Source: an uncultured cyanobacterium
GTDB lineage: Bacteria; Cyanobacteriota; Cyanobacteriia; Phormidesmidales; Phormidesmidaceae
Direction: 5' to 3'
DNA length: 64,000 bases
Assembly: GCA_963793265.1 (NCBI GenBank)
Contig: CAWBZI010000001.1
Location: 1,440,001-1,504,000, forward strand
In this document: one piece after another, positions 28,763 through 59,280 of the stretch
How positions within the stretch are numbered: position 1 is the first letter of the stretch
How the letters are laid out: every line of letters starts with the position of its first letter
The notes under the pieces: model-generated
What the model was told of the DNA's origin: nothing
Seen by the model: the letters and a program-made list of their open reading frames with translations, nothing else
The model's database searches: none
Program-made: the position numbers and the translations under genes

Positions 28763-30523
28763 CTAGCCGACTGCATAGCCTTCCGCTTCGGCCTTTTGCT
28801 TGTTCTCATCGGCAAACTCTGCCGATTCATCGTCATCATCATCAAAGTCTTCCTGACTGAGTACCATCGATCGCGTGAGCCAGTGCTCGTCCAGCTTGCA
28901 AATCAGGCGAGCATTGTTATACGCCTGTCGCATGGTCAAAACGGTATGACCGATGTACTTACCCGAAGGCTCGCGCCTGACAACTAGCGCTAAATCGGCA
29001 GTGTTTTCGTTTGCGAGGCACAAAGGCAACAGCAAATCGATACTGTTAATTTTGGGATAGTAGGTTGGAACAGCCGTCGTGTAATTAATCTGGGTTCTGC
29101 GCAGGGTGCGCTCTAAAGCGCCTTCTAATCTGCGAACCAACGTTCGATAGCCAGCAGGATCGGCATCTAAAGCTTCAACAAACGAGCGCTTGTAGTCAAA
29201 AAACTCCGGTGTCGTCAGTCCTTGCGTACTGCGAGGGACGAATCCTTCTGGTGCATACTGCTCTAAAAAAGCTAGGGGCAGCCGCGCCATATTATCTTTT
29301 ACAATGTGCTGCCAGTCTACCTGGGGGACACCTGCGGCTAGGTGGTAAAAGGCTTGATTAGCATCAGAAAGGTAGTTAGCTGCAACAGGAAGCTGAGAAA
29401 ATTGGGCAACAAGTTTTTTTCCGGCATAGCCTTCACCAGCGATGCAAAAGTCTAGGCTCCAAGGCGTTTGGCTGCTGCTTGTCTGTGTGAATAGAGCGTA
29501 GATGGGCCGCAGTAAGGTGTCGAGCAGGCCAGTATTAAAGGCACGGTACTTGTAGCTGGTGCTAGCAATCACTTTGCTTTCGTGTTGCAGGCGGATGAAG
29601 GTGTAGCGCAGATAGCTTTTGAGAATGGGGTGGGCGAAGTCTTCGGGCGGTTGCGGGCCAAAGTACCAGTTTTCGGGGAGAGCGATCGCAGCTAGTTCAC
29701 TCACCTTTCGGTTAAGCACCTCAGCCGAAAACCCTGCAAACCGAGAAAGCGGCTCAACCGTCCGGCTCATAGGCTGTGGCCGACTAATCGGCTGAGAAAC
29801 CGCAACTCTACCGTTCGTTCTACCGCTGGCACTAGCGACACGAGGCTTTTTGACAGGTGAGGATAAAGCGGATGCTCTAGAAGATTTCTTAGGCTTCTTA
29901 ACACCGCGCGAAGCTGACAGGCGTACATAGCCAGGACTATCTTCCTTAAACTCAATCAGATCACCTCTGCTACTAATAAAAGCTTCAAAGTCATTAAATC
30001 CATATCGCTGCGCCGAAAAATCAGGATCTTTAGCAACGACTTCTTCCCTCAAGCTGTCTAAATGCACCCAGCCATCGGCACTTTCATAAGACTTCAGCGC
30101 ATCGCTCAGCAACCGCTTGGTATCCGTTACAGGCCGCACATAATACACAGGTGCTGAGTTGGGATTGTCCGGGTCGGGCTCCACTCTTTCCATTTCCACC
30201 AAATCGGGCACCGCTTGGAGCAAATCAATCAGCTTCGTGAAATTATATTTTTCGTAGGAAAATGCGGCGTCCTGTTTTCTCAAAAGCGCACCTACCTGAG
30301 CGGCGTGTGTGCGATTCTGCCGCGATAGCTGATAGGTTGCCTGATAAATCAGCCGTCTGAGCGGCGCTGATGCTGGCGATATCTCAATGGTGCTAGTGCG
30401 GAGCGGCCTTTCTCGCGAAGACTCATTGCCAAGCCTGGCTGACTCTGTAGGCCGAGCGGCTGTGTGCTGGCTATGAAATAGGCGCTGAAGGAATCTAGAA
30501 ATAGATTGAAATAGGGATCTCAT
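28763..30523 (-). CDS. OST-HTH/LOTUS repeat + DUF3825 domain protein
   Basis: Two LOTUS-like units (AFSYEKYNFTKLIDLL; DGWVHL...DPDFSAQRYGFNDF) and C-terminal ILKSYLRYTFIRL, FNTGLLD, AVPTYY, LLLPLCL, AYNNARLI. Confidence 0.78.
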   Translation of the reverse strand: MRSLFQSISRFLQRLFHSQHTAARPTESARLGNESSRERPLRTSTIEISPASAPLRRLIYQATYQLSRQNRTHAAQVGALLRKQDAAFSYEKYNFTKLIDLLQAVPDLVEMERVEPDPDNPNSAPVYYVRPVTDTKRLLSDALKSYESADGWVHLDSLREEVVAKDPDFSAQRYGFNDFEAFISSRGDLIEFKEDSPGYVRLSASRGVKKPKKSSRASALSSPVKKPRVASASGRTNGRVAVSQPISRPQPMSRTVEPLSRFAGFSAEVLNRKVSELAAIALPENWYFGPQPPEDFAHPILKSYLRYTFIRLQHESKVIASTSYKYRAFNTGLLDTLLRPIYALFTQTSSSQTPWSLDFCIAGEGYAGKKLVAQFSQLPVAANYLSDANQAFYHLAAGVPQVDWQHIVKDNMARLPLAFLEQYAPEGFVPRSTQGLTTPEFFDYKRSFVEALDADPAGYRTLVRRLEGALERTLRRTQINYTTAVPTYYPKINSIDLLLPLCLANENTADLALVVRREPSGKYIGHTVLTMRQAYNNARLICKLDEHWLTRSMVLSQEDFDDDDDESAEFADENKQKAEAEGYAVG

Positions 30524-30807: not shown

Positions 30808-31092
30808 ATGAAAATCTACGAAATTATTTGGAAAGATGCTTTTGTTGAAAAATTAGCGGTCAAACATGGAGTATCGACACAAGAAGTAGAAACTGTCCTC
30901 TCTCAGAAGTTTCATCTTCGGAAAGCCCAAAGAGGTCGTAAAAAGGGAGAGGATCTATACGCAGCATACGGAAAGACCGATACAGGTAGATTTTTAATCA
31001 TTTTCTTTATATGTAAATATCAAACCTCTGCGCTGCCCATTTCAGCCAGAGACATGACATCCTCGGAGCGGCAATACTATGAGCGTCAATAA
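30808..31092 (+). CDS. BrnT family toxin
   Basis: KLAVKHGVSTQEVE, YGKTDTGRFL, PISARDM. Confidence 0.88.
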   Translation: MKIYEIIWKDAFVEKLAVKHGVSTQEVETVLSQKFHLRKAQRGRKKGEDLYAAYGKTDTGRFLIIFFICKYQTSALPISARDMTSSERQYYERQ

Positions 31093-31354
31093 GAATCCCG
31101 TCGATCCCTTACCAGAAGAATTTGACACCTACGAAGCAGTAGCGGCCTTTTGGGATACCCACGATACTACTGACTATTTAGATGCTTTTACGACAGTTGA
31201 GGTAGAAGACGTTGACATCCGAAACCGCCGGTTTGAGGTGGAAGTGAAGGCAGACTTGATGAAAGTTTTGGCTGAGAAAGCAGAGCAGCGGGGGGTTGCG
31301 GTTAGTCAGCTTGTTGATAGTTTGCTGCGAGAAAATATTTCGAGTGTCGCCTAG
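31079..31354 (+). CDS. BrnA/CopG-like antitoxin
   Basis: PEEFDTYEAVAAFWDTHDTTDY and C-terminal RHH-like AEQRGVAVSQLVDSLLRE; overlaps brnT. Confidence 0.85.
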   Translation: MSVNKNPVDPLPEEFDTYEAVAAFWDTHDTTDYLDAFTTVEVEDVDIRNRRFEVEVKADLMKVLAEKAEQRGVAVSQLVDSLLRENISSVA

Positions 31355-31458: not shown

Positions 31459-34347
31459 ATGGGATGGCCTTGGCAGCGAAAGGAGAAGCAGGCGCAGAGT
31501 GAGCCCGTGTTGGAGCCGCTATCTGATCGCCAGTACGAGCAGTTGTTTTTGGCTTTGTTAAAGGATGTTGAGGAAGGGCGATCGCTTCAGCAACTGCAGG
31601 CTCGACTTGGTGGGCGGCAGCAGGATAGTAGCTTTGTTAGCTGGTTGAGGCGGTTTGGGCGATCGCGATTAGAAAATCCGGCAGCACATGTGGCATTGGG
31701 ACAACAGATGGTTGCACTAGCAGAGGTTGAGCTAGGGCCATTGAGTGTACTTTCGGGTGAAATCGGCAAGCAGTTGCTAACACAGGATGCAGCGCCGAGA
31801 TCTGAGGCTCTATCGGATGAACCGCAGCCTGCTCAGGTGATAGATGAAGAAACGACTACGGAAGAGATCACTAGGCGAGCGGACTTTTACTTTCAGCAGG
31901 GGAAAGAATCTTATTATCAAGGTGATTTGAGAGGAGCGATCACTGCATATAACAAAGCTCTGGATATCAACCCTTATTTATATGGAGTGTTGGTTAACAA
32001 AGGTGTATCCCTTGCCCAGTTAGGGCTATACGATGCTGCACTCGTTGTCTACAACCAAGCTCTAGGAAATAAGCCCGATGATTATATAGTACTCACTAAT
32101 AAAGGTGGATTGCTTGCCAAATTAGGCAACTATGAGGCTGCAATCACTCTCTATAATCAAGCCTTGACAATAGAATCAGATGATTACGTAACACTCTACA
32201 ACAAAGGCATAGCGCTTGTTGAACTGGGACAATACGAAGAGGCAATTGCAATCTACGACCAAGTTCTAGAAACCAAGACCGACTTGCACGAAGTGTTCTA
32301 CAACAAAGGTATAGCGCTCGCTAGCTCAAGACAATATGAAGCTGCAATCGCTGCCTACGATCAATCTCTAGAAATCAAGCCTGACAAGCGTTCAGCACTT
32401 GTCAATAAAGGTATAGCACTTGCTAACCTCGGGGGACAGTATGAAGCTGCAATCATGGCTTTTGATCAAGCCCTATCCATCAACCCAGATGATCATGGCA
32501 CTTGGATAAATAGGGGTGTAGCTGTCAGCAAATCCATCAGATGTAATACGTCAATAACCTTTTCTTTGCCTGCTCTGCTACGGCACGAATCCCTAGACAA
32601 ACGCGGCTACGAAGGTAGAATTGCCTGCTACACCATCGGGCTCAGACATGTCCACAAAGACAAAGATCCAGAAGGCTGGGGCTTACTCCATCACGAAAAG
32701 GGCCGCGCTCACTACTTCCATAGTCGCTCCCTGGCCAACGCATCTATCTACCTCGCCCAAGCCACCGACGCTTACGGCAAAGCTCTCGCCACGCTCACCG
32801 CCTTCCCCACACGCCATCTCGCTGTCTGCCAGGACGCTATCCGTGCCTACCTCGGCCTCAACAAAGCCGAAATAGCTAACCAATACCGTGAAGAAGGACT
32901 TCAACTTTTCCGCCAGCTTCTCAACGAAGCCCCAACCCTATCCGCAAAGCGCCGTCTAGAAACGCAGTTTTCCGGCTTTAGCCAGCTCCAAGTCGATACC
33001 CTCTTGAAAACCAACAGCCCCAACACTGCCCTAGAGACCGCCGAACGCTACAAAAACCGAACCCTCACCTGGCTTCTCGACACTTGGAAAGAACAAACCA
33101 TCAGCCCAAGCTGGGCCGACATGCAAACGCTACTTACTCCCAGCACCGCCGCTATCTTCTGGCACCTCAGCTCCGATACCCTCACCACTTTCCTCCTCTC
33201 CTCAGACTCAGCCGACCCACAAGTTATCTCCACCGCTTCAGCCGAAGCCTTCAATCAGTGGAACAAAGACTGGCAGCAGCGCTACCAAACCTATCGAAAA
33301 AAGAGCAAAGCCACTGATGACACAGATACAGAGAGAGATAGACCTAACCATCCCTGGCGACTGAACCTCAGCAAAGACCTACAAACCCTCAGTGAAATCC
33401 TAAACATATCTCGAATAGAAACCGCGCTCACCGATTGCGATTACCTCATCCTCATTCCTCACAGGCAGCTCCACCAGCTTCCTCTCCACGCCCTATTCAC
33501 AGATGCATTCATTACTACCTATCTTCCCAGTATCCAAGCTGGCCTCACCCTTCAGCATAAGGCCAGGCAAAAATCTCAAAGCACCTCACCACCTCACCCA
33601 GCACTACTTCTCGAAACCCCAGCAAGTAACCGCTACGAGCCGCTCATCTTCGCTGAAGTAGAAACTGCCCTCATTGCCTATCTCTGCCAACAAAGCGATC
33701 AGCAACCCACTCTCATCGATAGCGCCCAAGCCCACAATCAAACTCTCATCGCCACCCTTCAACAGCCCCACTGCCTCTTTCACTTCACTGGCCACGCTGC
33801 CCACGACTATCGCCACCCGCAAAACTCTGCCCTAGCCCTCATAGGCGAAGACACCCTGAGCGCTGCCGAAGTCGCCACGCTTCCTCTCAAAACTTATGGT
33901 CTAGTAACGCTTGCTGCCTGCGAAACTGCCGTAGCCGGACAAGAAAACCTCGAAACCGACTACGTAGGCTTATCCAGTGCCTTTCTTACCGCCGGAGCAG
34001 CCCAGGTCATCAGCACCCTCTGGACTGTAGACTCGCAATCTAACGCCTGGCTCATGGTGAACTTCTATCAGCGCTACCTCACGGGTACTTCTGCCTCTCT
34101 TGCCCTACACCAAGCACAGCAATGGCTTCGCACCGCTACCTATACACAGCTTGCCGACTGGCTAGCATCCTTAAACACACCATCCTTCTGTCAGCATTGT
34201 ACCGCAGATGAAGATGAAACCTTAGTTGGTAAAATAGGGGAATATAGAGACAAATCCAGAGATTTAGACCTGAGTCAAACACCCTACGCGAACCCTTACT
34301 ACTGGGCAGCGTTCACCCTCACTGGGTATCACCATGAAAGCGAATGA
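31459..34347 (+). CDS. TPR-CHAT (caspase HetF-associated) protease
   Basis: Helical N-domain, six full TPRs plus one partial, CHAT motifs LILIPH..LHQLPLHAL, HFTGHA, LAACET, FLTAGA..VISTLW, YYWAAFTLTG. Confidence 0.92.
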   Translation: MGWPWQRKEKQAQSEPVLEPLSDRQYEQLFLALLKDVEEGRSLQQLQARLGGRQQDSSFVSWLRRFGRSRLENPAAHVALGQQMVALAEVELGPLSVLSGEIGKQLLTQDAAPRSEALSDEPQPAQVIDEETTTEEITRRADFYFQQGKESYYQGDLRGAITAYNKALDINPYLYGVLVNKGVSLAQLGLYDAALVVYNQALGNKPDDYIVLTNKGGLLAKLGNYEAAITLYNQALTIESDDYVTLYNKGIALVELGQYEEAIAIYDQVLETKTDLHEVFYNKGIALASSRQYEAAIAAYDQSLEIKPDKRSALVNKGIALANLGGQYEAAIMAFDQALSINPDDHGTWINRGVAVSKSIRCNTSITFSLPALLRHESLDKRGYEGRIACYTIGLRHVHKDKDPEGWGLLHHEKGRAHYFHSRSLANASIYLAQATDAYGKALATLTAFPTRHLAVCQDAIRAYLGLNKAEIANQYREEGLQLFRQLLNEAPTLSAKRRLETQFSGFSQLQVDTLLKTNSPNTALETAERYKNRTLTWLLDTWKEQTISPSWADMQTLLTPSTAAIFWHLSSDTLTTFLLSSDSADPQVISTASAEAFNQWNKDWQQRYQTYRKKSKATDDTDTERDRPNHPWRLNLSKDLQTLSEILNISRIETALTDCDYLILIPHRQLHQLPLHALFTDAFITTYLPSIQAGLTLQHKARQKSQSTSPPHPALLLETPASNRYEPLIFAEVETALIAYLCQQSDQQPTLIDSAQAHNQTLIATLQQPHCLFHFTGHAAHDYRHPQNSALALIGEDTLSAAEVATLPLKTYGLVTLAACETAVAGQENLETDYVGLSSAFLTAGAAQVISTLWTVDSQSNAWLMVNFYQRYLTGTSASLALHQAQQWLRTATYTQLADWLASLNTPSFCQHCTADEDETLVGKIGEYRDKSRDLDLSQTPYANPYYWAAFTLTGYHHESE

Positions 34348-35134
34348 AGCCCTTACTTTAGATGCCTGCTTGCTGGCACTGTTGCACTACGGCGACAGCG
34401 TACCCCTCCACCTGCACAAGCAAATCCAGATGGCTAACCAGCAGCTTGCCAATCGCCAACCCGGCGCTGTCAAGCAGCTCAAAAACGTGCTCCAGCAAGA
34501 CAAGCAGCTAGATCAACTGTATGCCGCTTCTCGCAACTATCTGGCGACTCAATACGGCCAGCAGGAGAGAGCGAAAAGTGTCTTTGGCGTAGGCACTCTG
34601 CCGATGCCCTCTATAAGACCCAGCTTGGCACCCGCTACCGGCTCTAATGGCTTTAGTTTTGGTTTAGTCGATTTAGCGACGGATATTTTGAGTAGTCCTG
34701 ATGCCAACTACCGGATCAAAGCGCAGCAAGTGTTAAGGCGACCGCAACTGCAAAGGCAGCTCGAAAAGGCGTCTGAAGAATTGCGAGTATCAGCCCAAGA
34801 GCTTTCTAAAGCTGCCAATCGGCTGCATCCTACCAAGGTGGCCATCATGAAAAAGATAGAAAACAACTTTTTTACCCTAGACGATGTTGCCTACAGCCTC
34901 GAACTTCCAGTAGAAAACGCACAGCGCTACATAAAATCCCTTTGGAATGAGGGCTATGTTCGTCCGACTTCTGGAAACCTCTTGAAGCAACTATGGCTAT
35001 CGTGGAAAGGGGCTCCGGCTTTAGAAGACTTACCTGATATCGAAACCTCTCTGGCTCTGACAACCAAAGGCCATTTTTACCTGCATCCTGGTACCTTGGG
35101 TAACTACTTGAACAGAAAGCGGAGGTATGCATAA
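34334..35134 (+). CDS. Hypothetical protein, N-terminal helical domain and C-terminal winged-helix-like domain
   Basis: Overlaps the CHAT stop by 14 nt; FTLDDVAYSLELPVENAQRYIKSLWNEGYV...LALTTKG resembles wHTH. Confidence 0.7.
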   Translation: MKANEALTLDACLLALLHYGDSVPLHLHKQIQMANQQLANRQPGAVKQLKNVLQQDKQLDQLYAASRNYLATQYGQQERAKSVFGVGTLPMPSIRPSLAPATGSNGFSFGLVDLATDILSSPDANYRIKAQQVLRRPQLQRQLEKASEELRVSAQELSKAANRLHPTKVAIMKKIENNFFTLDDVAYSLELPVENAQRYIKSLWNEGYVRPTSGNLLKQLWLSWKGAPALEDLPDIETSLALTTKGHFYLHPGTLGNYLNRKRRYA

Positions 35135-35137
35135 GCA

Positions 35138-35905
35138 ATGCAGCAGGGTATTGCTTGGTTGCCTCAGCTTTTAGTTACTTCAGTGCCCGGCGTCATCAAT
35201 GTTTGGCTATCTGGCGGCGAGCAGAGGAAGGAGTTTCAGCAAAAGCTTCCCATTTTTGGACCGTCAAAGAGTCCGGCGTGGTGGTTTTTGCAACTGGTTC
35301 AGTTTTTAGTTCCTGCTGCCTTGTTTTGGTGGGCAGCGCCTGCCGCCTTTCGGATTCCACCGCCTGCTGTAACTCGGCCACTCGATTTTGTAATGTGGGC
35401 CAATGCGATTGCCTTCGGTTGGGGTTTTGTGGCTCTTATCAATGCACCAATCAGCATTCTTTCCGCAGGAATGCTGGAGCCTGGCACGATATATGCAAGG
35501 TTAGTCAGAAACCTGTACGAAACAATAGACAACAGAGAAAAGCCCAAAATGCGGCGGTTCCGACGAGAGCTAATAGTCGAGCTTGAGAAAACACCTCACT
35601 TCTCAAATAAAGGGTTTGATGATTTGGCTGAATGCTTAGGCGTTTCGTTTGATCTGCTGAGTAATCAGAGTTTACCGCTCGATAGCAGAACCGAATCCAT
35701 CGTCCGTAAAGTAAACGCTATTAAAGCTCAGCCTACGCAAGCGCAAAAGGCAACAGAGATTGTCAAACTGCTAAGAACCGAAGAAGTCCTCACTGTTCAC
35801 GACTGGCCAGAACTCATCCGCGCCTTTGGTGGACGAGATGTTTTCATTCAGCGCTACTTTAAAGTTCGTCCATCTCCTAAAAAAGGTAGTCGCTCGCATC
35901 CATAG
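35138..35905 (+). CDS. Hypothetical multi-pass membrane protein
   Basis: About three hydrophobic segments in the first ~110 aa, then a charged helical domain; starts 3 nt after the preceding stop. Confidence 0.72.
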   Translation: MQQGIAWLPQLLVTSVPGVINVWLSGGEQRKEFQQKLPIFGPSKSPAWWFLQLVQFLVPAALFWWAAPAAFRIPPPAVTRPLDFVMWANAIAFGWGFVALINAPISILSAGMLEPGTIYARLVRNLYETIDNREKPKMRRFRRELIVELEKTPHFSNKGFDDLAECLGVSFDLLSNQSLPLDSRTESIVRKVNAIKAQPTQAQKATEIVKLLRTEEVLTVHDWPELIRAFGGRDVFIQRYFKVRPSPKKGSRSHP

Positions 35906-43859: not shown

Positions 43860-44038
43860 GTATGAGGCTGGCTGTATAAAATTAAGTGCTGTTATGGCGT
43901 GCTAGAGAAAGCCATTTGGAACGAAAATGACAAGAAGACGTTCTAGTCAGCTAGGGTTGCTAAAGACTACTGTGTAGAATTGATACATCATCGCTCTTGT
44001 TTATTAAGCGAATTGGCGAAACGCTTCACGCTCTATCT

Positions 44039-46504
44039 ATGGCTGCTCCATTGCTCAATCATCGCTACCGTATTTTGAAGTCTTTAGCTGAAGGGGGCTT
44101 TGGCAAAACGTTTTTGGCTGAAGACACGCAGATGCCCTCGAAGCGGCAGTGTGTGATTAAGCAGCTCAAGCCGATGAGTGATCGCCCAGCGGTATTTGCT
44201 CTCATTCAGCAGCGCTTTTCTAGAGAGGCAGCAGTGCTAGAAGCGGTAGGCAAAGGCAGCGACCAAATCCCGGATCTGTACGCATACTTCTCAGAAGACA
44301 ATCAGTTCTACCTCGTCCAAGAATGGGTAGAAGGGCAACCCCTGAGCGCTGTGGCTCAAGACACTTGGACCGAAGAACGCGTTAATAAGCTCGTTATCGA
44401 TGCCTTGAAAGCGCTGGCGCATGTGCACCGGCAAAACATCATTCATCGTGATATTAAGCCTGACAATATTATTCTGAGAAAAGCCGATCAGCTACCGTGC
44501 CTAATAGATTTTGGGGCGGTGAAAGAAGTGATGAGCACGGTGCTGAGTGCTTCGGGCTCGCCTAAAACGTCTTTGGTGATTGGAACGCCTGGATTTATGC
44601 CACCGGAGCAGTCGGCAGGACGGCCTACATTTGCCAGTGATATCTATAGTTTGTCGATGACGGCAATTTATCTGCTGACGGGGCGATCGCCCACCGAAAT
44701 CCCTACCGACAGCAGCAACGGACGCCTGCTCTGGCAGCAGTACGCTCCCAACCTCAGCACTCGCTTTGCCAGCATTCTCACTCGTGCCATTCACCCCTAT
44801 CCTCAAACCCGCTACGCCACCGCTAGCGACATGCTCGAAGCCCTAACGACAGCATCACCCACAGTCGTCTCTGAATCAAAAACGACTGCACCGCTAAGAT
44901 CGTCTGCTGCGCCGACAGTGGTGGCTTCTCCTTTGAGCCCAGCGGCTGGTCAGGTTGCTAATTCTCAACCGGGTCAGGCTACGGTCATCAACACGCCTGC
45001 GCCCAGCTCAAAGCGTTCTTCAGCGCTCCCTTGGAAGCGAATCGGTTTGGCAGCAGGTGCGCTGGTTTTAGGAGCAGGCATTATCGCAGGGCTACGGCCT
45101 CAGCTATCGTTTCAAGGCAGCTCATCAGAAGCAACGCTAGAAGACTTTCGAGGGCGAATTGCAACGTTAGAGAGAACCGTGGAGGGCGAGCCTGATAATG
45201 AGTCGGCTCAGGTTGAACTAGCTGAGAACTATGTCGAGGTAGGTGAGTACGATGAAGCGATTTCTCAGCTAGAGCCTTTGCTTGCACAAGCGCCTAACGA
45301 TGCTGCGGCCCTTACTGCTAAAGGCGAAGCTCAGTTTGCAACTGGCGATTACGCAGCCACGATAGAAACCACTACGAGAGCGATAGAACAAGGTGAACCG
45401 AGCGCCAAGACTTATAACCTGCGAGGCGATGCTTATTACGAAACGGGTGAATATGACAAAGCTGTTGACGACTACCGCAGCGCTATTCGCGTAGATCCTG
45501 ATAATGGGTTGGCCTATAGCAACTGGTCTGCTGTCAATGTGGTGAGGGGCAACGGGCAAGAGGCTTTGCAAAATTTGAACTTAGCAGTTGAGAAAGACCC
45601 TGGCTTGATTTCGGGCTTTGTGAATAGAGGCAGTCGTAAGGCTGAGCTAGGCGATAATTTGGGCGCAGCTAAAGACTGGCAGCAGGCGATTTCGCTGCCT
45701 GTGACGACCGCGAATGAGTACGCTAGTAGGGGCTATGCAAAGTCTCGTATGGGTGATAAGAGGGGAGCGATTGATGACTATAATCAGGCGCTAATTATCA
45801 ATCCTAAACTGGCTCGTGGCTATGTGAATCGAGCGGCTGTTTTTTATGAGCAAGGCGAGCAAGCGCAGGCTCTGAGCGAACTAGAAAAAGCGCTCGCGAT
45901 CAATCCTAATTCAGTTAATGCGCTTATCTTTAAAGGAGAGATCAATGCTTTTAAGACAAATCCTGATGCAGGTGCTGCGTTAGCTGCCTATAACAAGGCA
46001 CTTGAGGTCAATCCGAACGATCCTGGCGTACTTAACAACCGCTGCTCTGCATACTTCGCGGCTCAGCAGTTTGATTTGGCGCTGACTGACTGTGACTTAG
46101 GCTTGCAAACCAATCCGCGCAGCGCCGCTCTATACAATGGACGGGGCAATATTCGCTTACAGCAAGAGAATTTTGAGGGTGCTATTCAAGACTACAGTCG
46201 AGCAATTGAGATCTTTAATGCTGAAGGCGCGGAGCAAAGAAATCAGCCTATTTATTCTAATAGGGCTAGTGCCCTTGTGCAGATTGGCGATCTCAACGGT
46301 GCGCTTAGTGATGTCAACAAAGCATTGGAGCTGAAGCCAGATGCGCCTGAGGATTACTACAAGCGCGGGCTGATTAAAGTGACTCAAGAAGATCGAGAAG
46401 GCGGCGCTGCTGATTTGCGCAAGGCGGCCGACTTGTATATTGAGCAAGGGCGCACTGATAGTCACAAAAACGTCATAGCTATGATGGAGCAGTTAGGTCT
46501 TTGA
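44039..46504 (+). CDS. Ser/Thr protein kinase with TM and long TPR array
   Basis: GGFGKT, VIKQL, HRDIKPDN, DFG, GTPGFMPPEQ; TM segment; many TPRs. Confidence 0.93.
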   Translation: MAAPLLNHRYRILKSLAEGGFGKTFLAEDTQMPSKRQCVIKQLKPMSDRPAVFALIQQRFSREAAVLEAVGKGSDQIPDLYAYFSEDNQFYLVQEWVEGQPLSAVAQDTWTEERVNKLVIDALKALAHVHRQNIIHRDIKPDNIILRKADQLPCLIDFGAVKEVMSTVLSASGSPKTSLVIGTPGFMPPEQSAGRPTFASDIYSLSMTAIYLLTGRSPTEIPTDSSNGRLLWQQYAPNLSTRFASILTRAIHPYPQTRYATASDMLEALTTASPTVVSESKTTAPLRSSAAPTVVASPLSPAAGQVANSQPGQATVINTPAPSSKRSSALPWKRIGLAAGALVLGAGIIAGLRPQLSFQGSSSEATLEDFRGRIATLERTVEGEPDNESAQVELAENYVEVGEYDEAISQLEPLLAQAPNDAAALTAKGEAQFATGDYAATIETTTRAIEQGEPSAKTYNLRGDAYYETGEYDKAVDDYRSAIRVDPDNGLAYSNWSAVNVVRGNGQEALQNLNLAVEKDPGLISGFVNRGSRKAELGDNLGAAKDWQQAISLPVTTANEYASRGYAKSRMGDKRGAIDDYNQALIINPKLARGYVNRAAVFYEQGEQAQALSELEKALAINPNSVNALIFKGEINAFKTNPDAGAALAAYNKALEVNPNDPGVLNNRCSAYFAAQQFDLALTDCDLGLQTNPRSAALYNGRGNIRLQQENFEGAIQDYSRAIEIFNAEGAEQRNQPIYSNRASALVQIGDLNGALSDVNKALELKPDAPEDYYKRGLIKVTQEDREGGAADLRKAADLYIEQGRTDSHKNVIAMMEQLGL

Positions 46505-46520
46505 TAGAGAGCATTGAATA

Positions 46521-48221
46521 GTGGCAGGCTTACTCAATCATCGCTATCGAATTTTAAGATCTTTGGCTGAAGGAGGCTTTGGTAAAACCTTTCTGGCCGA
46601 AGACATTCAGATGCCTTCGCGGCGGCGCTGCGTGATTAAGCAGCTTAAATCGGCTAGTTCGGAGCCTGGCATTGCTCAGATTGTGCGCGATCGCTTCGCC
46701 CGAGAAGCTGCCGTCTTAGAATCAGTCAGCAAAGGCAATCCACAGATTCCCGATCTGTACGCTTACTTCTCAGAAGGCAATCAGTTCTACCTCATTCAAG
46801 AATGGGTAGAAGGCACGCCCTTACACCAAACCATTCCGCCTACTTGGTCTGAAGAGAGCGTGGTTAAATTCCTTACAGACGTATTGCCTGCTTTAGATCT
46901 GGTTCATCAGCAGAATATTGTTCATAGAGATATTAAGCCTGAAAATATAATTTTGCGTCAGCGCGATCGGCTACCTTGTCTGATTGATTTTGGCGCAGTA
47001 AAAGAGATGATAAGCACCGTTGTCTCTGCTGGCACTCGCGAAAGTTCTATAGTGATTGGTACGCCTGGGTTTATGCCACCGGAGCAGGCAGCAGGGCGGC
47101 CTACGTTTGCCAGTGATTTGTATAGCTTGTCGATGACGGCGATTTACTTGCTGACTGGGCGATCGCCTCACGAAATTTCAACCGACAGCTACACAGGTCA
47201 GGTGCTATGGCAGCAGTATGCAAACGGGATGAGCGATCGCACCGCCGCCATTCTCACTCGCGCCATCAGCCTCAACCCACAAGATCGCTATCCTACTGCT
47301 GCTGATATGCTATCAGCGTTATCACAAGCCTCTGAATACAAAGCACAGATAGCAGAAACCGTAGTTTCGGCCCAGCCCAGCTTGCTTTCAGCTCGAGTCT
47401 TAGATGCTGACCCTAAGCAAAAAACGAGGATTAGCTGGCGGTATGCGGGTATCGGTAGTGGTGTCTTAGCAGTTGTGGCTTTGATCTGGGGGGGATCTCA
47501 GATTCAGCGGCTTACAGTTGAGCGATCGCAAAGTCCAACAGAAAACTCTTCCACCGTAACCATAGAAAGAAATCAAAAGCAACAACCTTTGGCTGAAGGA
47601 GATTCTATAGCAGAACTCACAGCTTCTATAGAATCGATAGAGAAGACTATCACTGAAGGCTCGGATGCTTTTGATAAGGGAGCGCTAGCGATCAACTATC
47701 TCGATAGAGCTGAAAAACTGTACGCTGAAGGCCGAGAATCACGTGCGCTAACAGACATTAACAGCGCTGTGATGTACGATTCTACTTTAGCCGATGCCTT
47801 TGTCCTTAGAGGTGATATTTACGCTAACCAGTCTCGGCCAGATTTTGAGGGGGCGATCGCTGCCTACACCGAAGCGCTCAACACCCCTGAGCTTCTCGAT
47901 CCGATAGCCGCCAGAATATTTGGCAAGCGATGCCAAACCTACGTGAAGCTTGAGAACTGGGCGCTAGCCGAAGAAAACTGCACCCGAAGCCTGAATCTTA
48001 ATGGCACTAATGCAGGAATCTACGCCGTTCGAGGCGATATCTACGCTGCGCAAAACGAGCTTGAGCAGGCCAATGAGCAGTACAGCATTGCGATAGAAAT
48101 TAATGAAGAAAGCGGTGTTGACGACCGCAGCGTTTACTACCGAAGATCTCAAGTAAGAGAGAAAATGGGAGACGCAGAAGGCGCTTTGTCTGATCTGCAA
48201 TACATCAGAACACCGCAGTAG
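46521..48221 (+). CDS. Ser/Thr protein kinase with TM and short TPR array (tandem paralogue)
   Basis: HRDIKPEN, DFG; TM segment; C-terminal TPRs. Confidence 0.92.
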   Translation: MAGLLNHRYRILRSLAEGGFGKTFLAEDIQMPSRRRCVIKQLKSASSEPGIAQIVRDRFAREAAVLESVSKGNPQIPDLYAYFSEGNQFYLIQEWVEGTPLHQTIPPTWSEESVVKFLTDVLPALDLVHQQNIVHRDIKPENIILRQRDRLPCLIDFGAVKEMISTVVSAGTRESSIVIGTPGFMPPEQAAGRPTFASDLYSLSMTAIYLLTGRSPHEISTDSYTGQVLWQQYANGMSDRTAAILTRAISLNPQDRYPTAADMLSALSQASEYKAQIAETVVSAQPSLLSARVLDADPKQKTRISWRYAGIGSGVLAVVALIWGGSQIQRLTVERSQSPTENSSTVTIERNQKQQPLAEGDSIAELTASIESIEKTITEGSDAFDKGALAINYLDRAEKLYAEGRESRALTDINSAVMYDSTLADAFVLRGDIYANQSRPDFEGAIAAYTEALNTPELLDPIAARIFGKRCQTYVKLENWALAEENCTRSLNLNGTNAGIYAVRGDIYAAQNELEQANEQYSIAIEINEESGVDDRSVYYRRSQVREKMGDAEGALSDLQYIRTPQ

Positions 48222-55598: not shown

Positions 55599-58439
55599 TC
55601 AATTTCCGCTACCAACGGCTGCAGGTTCAGGCACAATCACAGGCTGGATGGCAGCCGACGCTTCTGCATCCCTATGTTGAAACTTCCAAAGCTCTATCAT
55701 TTCATTGGGGTTATTAGGCGAAGGCACCTGACCCCAAAGGGTCATCACATAGTCTTCACCGACTAGCGTAGGCGGAAATGCGGGCGTTAGCATGGCAGCA
55801 GGTGAACGTTCAGTTTCTGATGAGGATGCTTCTGGAGGTTGTGCTGGTATGGGCACAGGCGCTTTGCTTCTAGGCGTTCTCGTTTGAGGTGTTTTGGGTT
55901 CAGGCATTCTAGTCCGCTTCTGCCATAGTCCAGGTGAAGTGTTTGCTTCAGCGTCAGTGCTGGCCTCTGGGCGGCTACTAGAAGGCATATCCCCTTCTAT
56001 CTCAACCTGTGCTGGTGGCTGATGATGCATCGGAGGAAAAACCAACCGGCTAATTAAGTGAGCGGCGATTCCGGCAATGAGTGCCAGCGGAATGAGCATG
56101 CTGGTGCGGAGTCTTAGCCGAGTTTGCGACTTTCGACTAGCGGCGATGTACTCCTGTGCTAGGTGTGACAGCTCGTCTCTATGTAGCTGTACAAACGCTA
56201 TCGTTTCCTGTAGCTGGCTGCCGCCTAGCAGATATTCGCTACCCTTAGGCCGATTTCGCTGTGACCACTCCTGCGCGCTGCTCTCCAATCGGCGCTGTAG
56301 GCGTAAGATGCTGCGAGATTCGGCAAGCCAGGTGCGGAGCAAATCCCAGTCATTAACCAGAGATTTATGGACAACCTCAATGGTTCTTGGTGAGCCTGTA
56401 ATCGGTAGCGCAGCATCAGATGCGTTATTAACAAACCAAGTTTTGAGCGGCGACGATTCGTCATGCTGCGTTTGCCAGACGGCGGTTGGCATCTCAGTAC
56501 CTTGCGTTTGATCAGGGCAGCAGCAGCTACTCGAAATAGCCGCTTGAGAAACGACCACAAGCCTTTCGGCCGTAAGCTTATCTAGCGTGCAGTCAATCAG
56601 CTCAGCCGGAAAGTTCTCGTTAATCAGTTCGCTTCTAAAGGCGCGCCGACGATCGTCCTCTCGCCCCTCGCCAAGCTCGCACAGACCCAAAAAGATCCGC
56701 CTGGCTGCTCGTTTCATCTCATCGTCTAAGCTGCCATACACAGCCGTCGCCCGAGTCTTGAGAATGTCTCTAACGCTGCCGATATCGGTATAGGCTTCTA
56801 GCGTTAGCTTAGGCTTAGTACCTCCCCGTTCGCTAGAATCTCGTCGCCGCCACAGCTCCAAAAGCGTCTGCTGAATCAACGGCAGCTCTCCAGGAGCGCC
56901 CGTTGTATCTAGCGTGAGGAAATGAAGGAGCTGAGGATCTATCTCAATATCCATCTTTTCAGCAGGCTTTGTGATGACCTCTTTGATCTGCTCGTAGCTC
57001 ATCGGAGAAACGACCAGCGTATGCTTCTCTACAAGTGTCTTGAACTCTTCGTAAGGGATCAGCCCGTCCATGGCATCTGCACGCAAGCCGATAACAATGC
57101 CGATGGGCGTACTCGGATCGCTCAGCGCTTTCGTAAGACAGCGAATAAATAGCGATCGCTCCGCTGCCACGGCTGGATCCTTGGTAGTACCTAGTAGCTC
57201 TTCAAACTGATCGATTACCAGCCATAGTTTTGAGGTTGCTGGAATTGAGGTTTCACCGGGCTTGAGGAGACTGGCCCTAACAAGCTGAGACAGGCCGCTA
57301 CCGTCGCTTTCATTTAAGAATTTCTCGGCCTGGTGAAGTTGACTGGCGCGCTGAATGCCGTCAGTAGTAGCTGTGCTGAAGGCCGCGGCTAGGCTTTTGA
57401 TAGGGTGGAGCGTAGGCGTGATGTGCTTGAGGCTCCACTGGTCGCTGCCTTCGATGTGGGTACCTTTTCGTAGGTGATAGATAAGGCCCGCGCGAAGGAG
57501 AGACGTTTTGCCGCTGCTAGACGCGCCAACGACAGCACAGAAGTTATCTTCGCTGACGGCTTTGAGTAGCTTATTAGTAAGCTCTTTGCGGCCAAAGAAG
57601 TAGTCTGCGTGGGCTTCGTCAAAAGGCGATAGACCTCGGTAAGGGCAAAAGCCGAAGGTGAGCTTTTTGATCCTGGCTAGGGTGCTGATAGGCGTTTTTG
57701 AAATAGCGGCCTGTAGTCCGGTCATTCGAGTAATGACGATTTCGCTACCTGAGCTTTCAAACAAAGGCTGCTGAATTTCGCCGCGCAGGCTCTGGCTAAC
57801 GTGCTCGGTGAGGCTGTAGTTGCTGACCTTGCCGCCTGCTTGCTGATGTGGATCAAGGCCAGAGAGTAAGGCTTTGGTAAAGACGCTGTGCTTGCCTTCA
57901 ATTGATTCGTAGGCGGACTCGTATTCTCTAGAAGCAGCCATGAACAGGCGGTCTATGCCCGCGCGTGCGCCAGGGTCGGCTTCGTTAAAGGCGAGCAGGC
58001 TGCCGCTGTGGCAGCAGTCTAAAATGACAATGATTTGGCGGACGGGGCTTTGCTGCAATAGCCGTCGTAGCCAGTTAAGCGGAATACCGAAGTTGCCTTT
58101 GCTCGGATCAGTGTCGCTAGTCGCTAGATAGCCCTCTTGAACGCCTGCTTCGCGCTGTAAGCCGTGACCTGAGAAATAAAACAATGCCGTTGCCGGGATG
58201 TTTTTACCTTTGGGCTTAAAAAGCTGAATAAGGGACTCTTCCAGCATTTGTGTGGTGACTTTGTTGCGACTGCTGATGACAGGACGCCCTTTTTTGATCG
58301 CTTCAGGTAGCCGGTGTACCCGGAACTCGCCTTGAGTCTGCAAGCGTCCGGCAACTGCCTCAGCGTCTGCGGCTGGCGCATTGAGCGGCGGCAACGACTG
58401 ATACTGGTTGATGCCAACAATTAGCGCATCCCGTGACAT
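55599..58439 (-). CDS. Caspase-like (peptidase C14) + nSTAND-type NTPase protein with TM and Pro-rich tail
   Basis: ALIVGINQY, YFSGHG and LDCCHSG dyad, CPYRGL..F, FFGR, GASSSGKT, LVIDQFEE, PGELPL. Confidence 0.9.
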   Translation of the reverse strand: MSRDALIVGINQYQSLPPLNAPAADAEAVAGRLQTQGEFRVHRLPEAIKKGRPVISSRNKVTTQMLEESLIQLFKPKGKNIPATALFYFSGHGLQREAGVQEGYLATSDTDPSKGNFGIPLNWLRRLLQQSPVRQIIVILDCCHSGSLLAFNEADPGARAGIDRLFMAASREYESAYESIEGKHSVFTKALLSGLDPHQQAGGKVSNYSLTEHVSQSLRGEIQQPLFESSGSEIVITRMTGLQAAISKTPISTLARIKKLTFGFCPYRGLSPFDEAHADYFFGRKELTNKLLKAVSEDNFCAVVGASSSGKTSLLRAGLIYHLRKGTHIEGSDQWSLKHITPTLHPIKSLAAAFSTATTDGIQRASQLHQAEKFLNESDGSGLSQLVRASLLKPGETSIPATSKLWLVIDQFEELLGTTKDPAVAAERSLFIRCLTKALSDPSTPIGIVIGLRADAMDGLIPYEEFKTLVEKHTLVVSPMSYEQIKEVITKPAEKMDIEIDPQLLHFLTLDTTGAPGELPLIQQTLLELWRRRDSSERGGTKPKLTLEAYTDIGSVRDILKTRATAVYGSLDDEMKRAARRIFLGLCELGEGREDDRRRAFRSELINENFPAELIDCTLDKLTAERLVVVSQAAISSSCCCPDQTQGTEMPTAVWQTQHDESSPLKTWFVNNASDAALPITGSPRTIEVVHKSLVNDWDLLRTWLAESRSILRLQRRLESSAQEWSQRNRPKGSEYLLGGSQLQETIAFVQLHRDELSHLAQEYIAASRKSQTRLRLRTSMLIPLALIAGIAAHLISRLVFPPMHHQPPAQVEIEGDMPSSSRPEASTDAEANTSPGLWQKRTRMPEPKTPQTRTPRSKAPVPIPAQPPEASSSETERSPAAMLTPAFPPTLVGEDYVMTLWGQVPSPNNPNEMIELWKFQHRDAEASAAIQPVIVPEPAAVGSGN

Positions 58440-59280
58440 GAGCAAAACACCCTTATGCAAAAGTAGCGTGCGACGTTTTTTGGCAAGGTCACTTTGTTAG
58501 AAAGTTGTCTTTTGGCCGAAAAACGTCGCGCGGAGTTATGAAGCAAGCTGGCGACTTGAATGTGTCAGCAGACTCGAAAAGAATGCGATAGCAGCAAACT
58601 TACCTTCATGAGTTCCCCGTGAAAATCGACTTGAAGACTTCTCTAAACCAACTCAACAAACAATTAAGATAAGTTGATTCATCAAGCCCTTTTGGTCGGC
58701 TTCCTAGATGAAGATAGACAACTTTTAAAGCAAATAAACAGGGGGTCTGCACCCTCACCCCACATACAGCAAAAAAGGTTGATATACCGTGATTACCATT
58801 GACTTAGGGGCAACTACTTAAGGGGTTCTTTTGATATCAAGTGGGCTTGATATGCATCTCTTAAGTCCTAGTTAAAATTACATAATGGAGGATATCTTTG
58901 CGCGATATTCGGACGTGTATTTGCCGAGATAGAGAGGCTGCGATCGCCCAGCATCAAAAAAGATTGTTTCCAACTAAGCCATTTAGCTTATTTATATTTT
59001 CAGCAAAAAATCAGTACAAAAAACGATGAACTGTCAAAAAAACGTTGATGGATTCAGTTTATTCTCTCAATACAACAAATTTGATTGATTAATAGTTTAT
59101 AAGCACTTTTTAGCAATCTTGTTACTTTTTTGGAGTGAACATATTGCGCATAAAATCAAGCTAAATTGATGATTAAGAAAGACGCGCTGATACCGTTTAA
59201 ATAAAGATGTTTATTAGCCTGTTAGTTGAATCGGTACATCAGCTTTTTCAATGGCTTCGATAGCTACTTTCTTATGCTCT

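Follow-up and report, generated by a model that had tools for sequence, protein, structure and literature searches.

Positions 31,459 to 35,905 of a 64,000-nucleotide (nt) stretch of an uncultured cyanobacterium of the Phormidesmidaceae (assembly GCA_963793265.1, contig CAWBZI010000001.1, positions 1,440,001 to 1,504,000 of the forward strand; hereafter, the window) carry three genes that encode a TPR-CHAT protein (gene 1), a two-module protein with a winged helix (gene 2), and a membrane protein (gene 3). The system is real, conserved, and unnamed in the family libraries searched, and most likely works like known protease-effector modules but with new parts. It is better read as two modules joined through gene 2, one consisting of the protease and a putatively cleavable helical module (the N-module) and the other of the winged helix and the membrane protein, because 7 of 27 winged-helix/gene-3 pairs lack the protease and because the N-module has other third components elsewhere. 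The mechanism that we favor, at just under an even chance, is a protease-gated, toxin-antitoxin-like module in which the protease cuts an inhibitor and frees a membrane effector.

The locus lies in a 5.7-Mb genome that is 99% complete, and its genes and their relatives are cyanobacterial. All three open reading frames (ORFs) are on the forward strand (Table 1); genes 1 and 2 overlap by 14 nt, and genes 2 and 3 are separated by 3 nt. A first-pass annotation of this DNA had reported these co-oriented, coupled genes together with the positions of the catalytic His and Cys codons, and the ORFs and the sequence confirmed every coordinate. It had also proposed a neighborhood comparison, which recovered the order gene 1-gene 2-gene 3 in 18 loci; as the same order recurs, the coupling is not a matter of chance. 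The three genes are flanked by a BrnT/CopG toxin-antitoxin pair on one side and by gltX-ftsH on the other. Genes 2 and 3 are single copy in the genome and match no Pfam or NCBIfam family, with only weak PADLOC rows. The PADLOC rows for gene 2 that named CARF and Cas12a (E 7e-4 or worse) were rejected as winged-helix and helical noise. Scans for promoters and terminators gave no signal above that of shuffled sequences.

Table 1. Features of the three-gene locus (window positions; aa, amino acids)
Feature	Position	Strand	Basis
Gene 1, TPR-CHAT caspase-clan protease (predicted), 962 aa from ATG 31459	31459..34347	+	Frame open from GTG 31420; Pfam matches
Gene 1 N-terminal helical domain, about aa 16-110	31504..31788	+	Alignment; no family match; some relatives only
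Gene 1 TPR array, about aa 141-356, presumed sensor	31879..32526	+	Pfam
Gene 1 CHAT domain, aa 641-956	33379..34326	+	Pfam, 148 bits vs cut-off 24, E 5e-43
Gene 2, two-module protein, 266 aa, predicted substrate and inhibitor/adaptor	34334..35134	+	ORF, profile search, model
Gene 2 helical N-module, aa 1-86, constant partner of protease subfamily	34334..34591	+	Gene-neighborhood comparison
Gene 2 candidate cleavage motif Q77-E78-R79-A80-K81-S82	34562..34579	+	Conservation; loss without protease
Gene 2 winged helix, aa 163-257, hydrophobic helix inserted in wing	34820..35104	+	Model; predicted binding of gene 3 product
Gene 3, membrane protein, 255 aa, presumed effector	35138..35905	+	ORF, model, hydrophobicity
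Gene 3 three hydrophobic segments, aa 4-22, 53-71, 83-101	35147..35440	+	Hydrophobicity peaks, model
Gene 3 CARD/death-fold-like domain (lead), aa 139-244	35552..35869	+	Structure search

By sequence, gene 1 encodes a CHAT (caspase/HetF clan) protein with an intact His-Cys dyad (His779, CAC at 33793-33795 in FTGH; Cys821, TGC at 33919-33921 in AACE), and proteolytic activity is predicted. The TPR array and CHAT domain noted earlier were both recovered by Pfam. The number of TPRs is variable, with 9 to 21 TPR_1 stretches in the four relatives scanned, more than in gene 1. The nearest solved relative by sequence is Csx29 (7y9x_B), a weak match (E 2.6e-4) in which the His and Cys motifs are both aligned; the Csx29 family model scored 54-55 bits on gene 1, below its cut-off of 300.

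The structure model of the gene 2 product (predicted local distance difference test [pLDDT], 89.7; predicted template modeling score [pTM], 0.82) consists of helices at aa 3-86, a low-confidence linker at about aa 87-110, further helices at aa 111-162, and the winged helix, which agrees with the helical N-domain, linker, and winged helix-turn-helix (HTH)-like C-domain described in the annotation. The N-module has four helices, the last of them long (aa 57-86), and the candidate motif lies near its end, before the flexible linker. A structure search assigned the winged helix to a MarR-like fold (Z 12.4; root mean square deviation [rmsd], 3.2; 78 residues aligned); such matches filled the list, and the fold of the N-module was not isolated. 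At E 0.001, a profile search with gene 2 retrieved 341 of the 50%-identity representative proteins, and the best 150 of these comprised 82 with both modules, 43 with the N-module only, and 25 with the winged helix only. Conservation in the N-module peaks where the long helix ends, in Y-x-x-Q-E-R-x-K-S (E, 70%; R, 77%; K, 72%; 134 sequences). Elsewhere, the winged helix is also fused to Ser/Thr kinase, GAF, phycobiliprotein-like, and TPR domains (P0017, P0142, P0145, P0133, P0149), and in one protein (P0175) the N-module is fused to an MbcA/ParS antitoxin domain (E 4e-17).

We compared the neighborhoods of 59 fetched loci, 56 of which contain the N-module. The protease is directly upstream in 42 of these, three are head-to-head with a caspase (C14-type)-nSTAND1 gene, two end at contig edges, and nine have neither. 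Conversely, among 30 loci of this CHAT subfamily in 173 genomes of the order, the N-module is found downstream in 25 by profile and in two more by eye; the remainder are one contig edge and two loci without the N-module (second, convergent copies), so that 27 of 29 informative loci are positive. The genome studied here has nine CHAT genes, and the N-module stands next to only one of them. The pair of protease and N-module also occurs on annotated Tolypothrix and Planktothrix plasmids.

The basic residues of the motif follow the protease. R-x-K is present in 51 of 68 protease-linked copies and in 2 of 16 protease-less copies; two linked copies without a profile hit and without R-x-K (L140, L141) are left out of this count (51 of 70 if included), and of three regular-expression matches among the protease-less copies, the one in L091 is off-register and was not scored as R-x-K. 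In loci with both the winged helix and gene 3, R-x-K is found in 18/18 with the protease and in 0/5 without it, and the 18 span several families at 20-45% identity. Decay of the motif in several separate protease-less lineages is the behavior expected of a cleavage motif or of a motif that binds an active site, and we consider it likely that the gene 2 product is cleaved by the protease. R79 and K81 are both candidate P1 residues. A cut after K81 would resemble the E-x-x-R rule of separase. HetF, a cyanobacterial CHAT protease, cuts PatU3 after Arg117 (PMC9457339). As side observations, an orthologous group with the N-module only (L090, L096, L097, L181, L182) has neither the protease nor the basic motif yet is kept across three families, and three loci (L092, L100, L102) have an N-module-like gene, with an insertion at the motif, and a 430-500-aa gene head-to-head with a caspase-nSTAND1 gene (WD40 or CARF type) instead of TPR-CHAT.

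The second module is the pair of winged helix and gene 3. Gene 3 matches were found at 32 places; the winged helix is directly upstream in 27, and the other five are fragments. Every intact gene 3 was accompanied by the winged helix, whereas the winged helix occurs twice without gene 3 (L037, L192), an asymmetry expected of toxin and antitoxin. One of these two, L037:6287-7522, is a deletion product that joins the gene 1 N terminus to gene 2, with the CHAT domain and gene 3 lost. We predicted the complex of the gene 2 and gene 3 products, a check that had been suggested in the annotation, using custom alignments, three runs, and three controls. The pair docked with a score of 0.63 in all three runs (best control, 0.00). 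Solved pairs attained this mark in 116 of 157 cases and mismatched pairs in 2 of 215, rates that apply only roughly here. The runs had at least 69% of contacts in common, with a partner pLDDT of at least 74. The predicted contacts place aa 178-190, 212-223, and 239-247 of the winged helix on aa 121-135, 187-191, and 210-216 of the gene 3 product; the N-module and the recognition helix (aa 193-205) are outside the contacts, and the wing is buried in the interface. No similar solved complex was present among the structure and sequence search matches. The modeling supports binding of the gene 2 product to the gene 3 product, which we consider quite probable.

In its model, the gene 3 product has three hydrophobic segments, a long helix, and a soluble helical C-domain, in line with the roughly three transmembrane segments and soluble domain that had been noted. 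When the full-length model was compared with 48,161 chains, 38 of the 50 listed rows were CARD, death-domain, or DED proteins; the others were nine other folds and three uninformative or designed titles. The best death-fold match had a Z of 6.8 (rmsd, 3.6; 80 aligned), with the domain taken within the full-length model, and a second structure comparison ranked CARD8 first (Z 6.7; rmsd, 3.3; 80 of 85). Of 35 aligned family members, 16 open the sixth helix with RxDL and 25 have the Asp; at this locus, gene 3 reads VHDW there, with the Arg lost. An RxD motif has been placed at the start of helix 6 of death domains (PMC8195603). The uniformity of the structure matches together with RxDL in 16 of 35 members strengthens the CARD-like assignment, which we treat as a lead. 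Profile-profile tests among the gene 1 N-domain, both gene 2 modules, gene 3, and the 430-500-aa sister protein showed no similarity, including between the gene 1 N-domain and either the gene 3 C-domain or the gene 2 N-module; thus, no homotypic death-fold partner was found. Gene 3 had no match in plasmids. In the Atlas, 28 unnamed gene 3-like clusters scored 0.9 or more, some of them acidobacterial and actinobacterial, with a recognition value below threshold, and these are a lead only.

The CARD-like fold of gene 3 and a wider family of alternative third components both go beyond the first-pass annotation. Elsewhere, the N-module frequently runs into a hydrophobic, glycine-rich hairpin tail, and in 22 of the 59 loci it is followed, in place of the winged-helix/gene-3 pair, by a 430-500-aa protein with two C-terminal hydrophobic segments, so both alternative outputs are also membrane directed. 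The 430-500-aa family starts with YPxLDLFxY and has a coiled coil (L105:6136-7521, L107:5664-7067, L110:8556-9968, L111:8395-9810); it was not identified in Pfam, NCBIfam, PADLOC, or PDB. By eye it seemed CorA-like, but PDB and PADLOC searches gave coiled-coil noise only. On a Tolypothrix plasmid (L110:245-9968), a TnsA-type transposase and an ATP-binding gene immediately precede the protease, N-module, and sister gene, which thus look like transposon cargo.

Gene 3 has a patchy distribution and was found in 16 of the 173 genomes surveyed from the order. The protease gene is split or interrupted in eight of 23 widely fetched protease-linked loci, although some of the breaks may be assembly errors, and gene 3 is decayed in broken loci. 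DNA methyltransferases stand beside loci L190 and L195. The patchy spread, the frequent decay, and the few mobile or restriction-type contexts suggest a role in defense. A scan of the genome collection with one narrow pattern returned three loci, and a metagenome scan with one protein as the query returned none. In the gene-search set, 17 of 53 rows were dropped: one 48-aa fragment and 16 weak matches in 460-900-aa frames, of which the three inspected were an unrelated protein.

In the protease-gated module that we favor, the gene 2 protein at rest would sit on the gene 3 membrane protein via the winged helix and keep it quiet. A cue bound by the TPR array would activate the CHAT protease, which would cut the gene 2 product after R79 or K81, within the basic motif at the end of the long helix. 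The loss of the N-module may then destabilize or reposition the inhibitor, removal of a steric cap being another guess. The freed gene 3 protein would assemble via its CARD-like domain and disturb the membrane, so that an infected or damaged cell of the filament would be arrested or die. We judge the inhibitor role, the oligomerization, and the defense or death output, taken together, to be an even call. An antitoxin role for the winged helix covers most of what was seen, namely, the restriction of intact gene 3 to loci with the winged helix, the persistence of the pair without the protease, the decay of gene 3, and the fusion to an antitoxin domain elsewhere; the protease would be a trigger added onto a toxin-antitoxin-like pair. 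A broader version holds that the membrane-anchored CARD-like protein, as a death effector or receptor, is kept latent by a winged-helix antitoxin and that a caspase-clan protease cleaves this antitoxin; that the family of the CARD-like protein, as the Atlas suggests, reaches Acidobacteriota and Actinomycetota; and that the N-module is a general plug through which the protease subfamily, like some caspase-STAND proteins, is coupled to three or more different membrane effectors across cyanobacteria. That all of this would hold together is doubtful.

Several results weigh against protease-gated release. The candidate motif falls within a predicted helix, and the cut would be made about 100 residues from the predicted interface, so the model does not explain how the gene 3 product is released. 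R-x-K is missing from 17 of the 68 linked copies. Six of these have K for R, two have C, and the members of one clade read ERG or EQG; in one clade the motif is devoid of basic residues. The copies counted are kin rather than independent draws, and the five protease-less winged-helix/gene-3 copies amount to about three lineages. All the death-fold Z scores are below 8 and, according to the tool's own warning, may reflect only a common helical arrangement, which is why the fold is a lead only; a Foldseek search with gene 3 against solved and viral libraries gave no match at E 0.001, and sequence searches likewise found nothing significant. Most loci, this one included, are among housekeeping genes (gltX-ftsH; dnaX-rnhA; nusG-rplK) rather than in defense islands. 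The protease lies upstream in 18 of the 27 winged-helix/gene-3 loci, and two loci end at contig edges; the genomes of the seven without it (82-99% complete) gave no match to the protease subfamily. In the one protease-less pair compared, the ratio of nonsynonymous to synonymous substitution rates (dN/dS) is near 0.08-0.09, i.e., purifying selection. The annotation had proposed a CRISPR-independent module of protease, substrate, and membrane effector, and had named the occurrence of genes 2 and 3 independently of CHAT proteases as part of what would refute it. The conserved operon, the motif that decays without the protease, and the predicted gene 2-gene 3 complex support the proposal, whereas those seven pairs, with no protease next door or in the genome, do not fit a strict three-part system.

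Nonlethal proteolytic signaling in the manner of HetF-PatU3, with gene 3 tethering a winged-helix transcription factor whose cleavage alters expression, division, or differentiation, is in our view unlikely. The MarR-like fold, the position of the recognition helix outside the predicted contacts, the housekeeping neighborhoods, the fusions of the winged helix to kinase, GAF, TPR, and phycobiliprotein-like domains (P0017, P0142, P0149, P0145), and the precedent itself (PMC9457339) all suit such a role. However, over 104 sequences the mean net charge is -1.2 (acidic) for the HTH core, 0.0 (neutral) for the recognition helix, and +1.2 for the wing; the wing, which carries a hydrophobic helix or hairpin, lies buried in the predicted interface; a DNA-binding domain is absent from most N-module proteins; and the spread is patchy, with frequent decay.

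It is quite unlikely that the winged-helix/gene-3 pair is self-sufficient and hitchhikes on the protease operon by gene fusion, so that any cleavage would not control the gene 3 product. Locus L093 has a stand-alone winged helix and gene 3 with no protease, the winged helix and gene 3 of L190 come with a different N-domain and are neighbors of a methyltransferase and a TIGR04255 gene, and the selection on the protease-less pair, although only one pair was compared, points the same way. Nevertheless, R-x-K is retained in every three-gene locus across the divergent families, and the gene 2 model is compact. Least likely is a reversed flow as in death receptor-adaptor-caspase signaling, with gene 3 as a membrane sensor and gene 2 as an adaptor or pseudosubstrate that recruits or restrains a protease acting on other targets: the animal layout of membrane anchor, death fold, adaptor, and caspase-clan protease, the predicted complex, and a motif conservation that fits an active-site-binding inhibitor equally well would allow it, but the protease and N-module are constant while the membrane parts vary, the variable TPR number suits the TPRs as sensor, gene 3 persists without any such protease, and profile-profile tests gave no second death-fold partner.

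Among known systems, type III-E Craspase (Csx29-Csx30) shares the TPR-CHAT protease, the aligned His and Cys, and an adjacent dedicated partner; unlike in Craspase, gene 2 has no Csx30 match and the output is a membrane protein rather than a sigma factor. As the annotation had held, no Cas or gasdermin gene was recognizable: neither gene 2 nor gene 3 scored above the cut-off for any Csx30, gasdermin, or Cas family; genes 2 and 3 and the flanking genes matched none of Csx30, Csx31, and cas7-11 beside the protease (cas7-11 was not searched genome-wide). The CATRA system with CATASP, which Burroughs and Aravind reportedly described in 2020, is said to place a caspase-family protease, a small helical protein, and a larger third protein in a row in multicellular bacteria. 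The same three-part row is found here, and the arrangement with the 430-500-aa protein is the nearest analogue; at this locus, the small protein is instead joined to a winged helix, and the third component is a membrane protein with three segments and a CARD-like domain. The CATASP model (PF20271) matched none of these genes and was found in 0/5 genomes at E 0.1, with a positive control that was not above the cut-off, and the CATRA-N and CATRA-C models, likewise lacking a positive control, matched neither gene 3 nor the 430-500-aa protein.

In protease-activated pore effectors (bacterial gasdermin, EACC1, Pepco), a site-specific cut of a neighboring product is proposed to unleash a membrane effector (10.1101/2025.11.14.688446). 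Freeing of a membrane effector by a site-specific cut is predicted here too, with the differences that there is no family match and that the cut would fall in a separate inhibitor, not in the pore protein. No gasdermin neighbor was recognized: there is no family match, and the gene 2 and gene 3 models are helical or winged helix. Bacterial CARD-like and death-like domains (bDLD1-3), as described in two reports, are soluble homotypic adaptors on proteases, NLRs, or effectors (PMC10312443, PMC8195603). Gene 3 would resemble them, if its death-fold lead holds, in having a six-helix domain beside a protease, and part of its family has RxD where the last helix begins; going by those descriptions, it differs in being a single-copy domain on a membrane protein, predicted to bind a winged helix and without a Pfam death-like family. 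HetF-PatU3 likewise involves a cyanobacterial CHAT protease, and HetF cuts after Arg, which compares with the candidate basic site here; the pair governs division and heterocysts (PMC9457339), whereas the present system is patchy and operonic. No NCBIfam or Pfam entry links gene 2 to PatU3. Among the papers listed by full-text literature searches, none described the arrangement, although the CATRA literature or its supplements could already list these cyanobacterial families.

Cyanobacteria have many CHAT proteases and, to our knowledge, almost no known substrates. At this locus both a candidate substrate and a six-residue candidate site can be named, and the decay of the site without the protease serves as a natural control, which makes the question directly testable. 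If the gene 3 domain is a true death fold, a membrane-bound CARD-like protein would be wired to a caspase-clan protease in a multicellular bacterium; such a layout would be close to animal death-receptor and MAVS signaling and would give filaments a means of regulated cell death. Two more candidate membrane effectors emerge from the wider family, the hairpin tail and the 430-500-aa protein.

Among the neighboring genes, the BrnT-family toxin and CopG-type antitoxin (window 30808-31354, forward strand) lie 105 bp 5′ of gene 1 on the same strand and were not seen conserved with the system. A LOTUS/OST-HTH-DUF3825 gene (28763-30523, reverse strand) adjoins the operon of the three genes in seven or more relatives, where it lies near gltX and on the opposite strand, to one side of the operon or the other. 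Farther away, positions 55599-58460 (reverse strand) encode a protein with a caspase-like part (EACC1-associated type, 102 of 140 bits), in which the residue after the SCH-like motif reads DCCHSG, plus a P-loop part and a C-terminal membrane segment. Positions 43997-48221 (forward strand) hold a tandem pair of genes, each combining a Ser/Thr kinase, a membrane segment, and TPRs.

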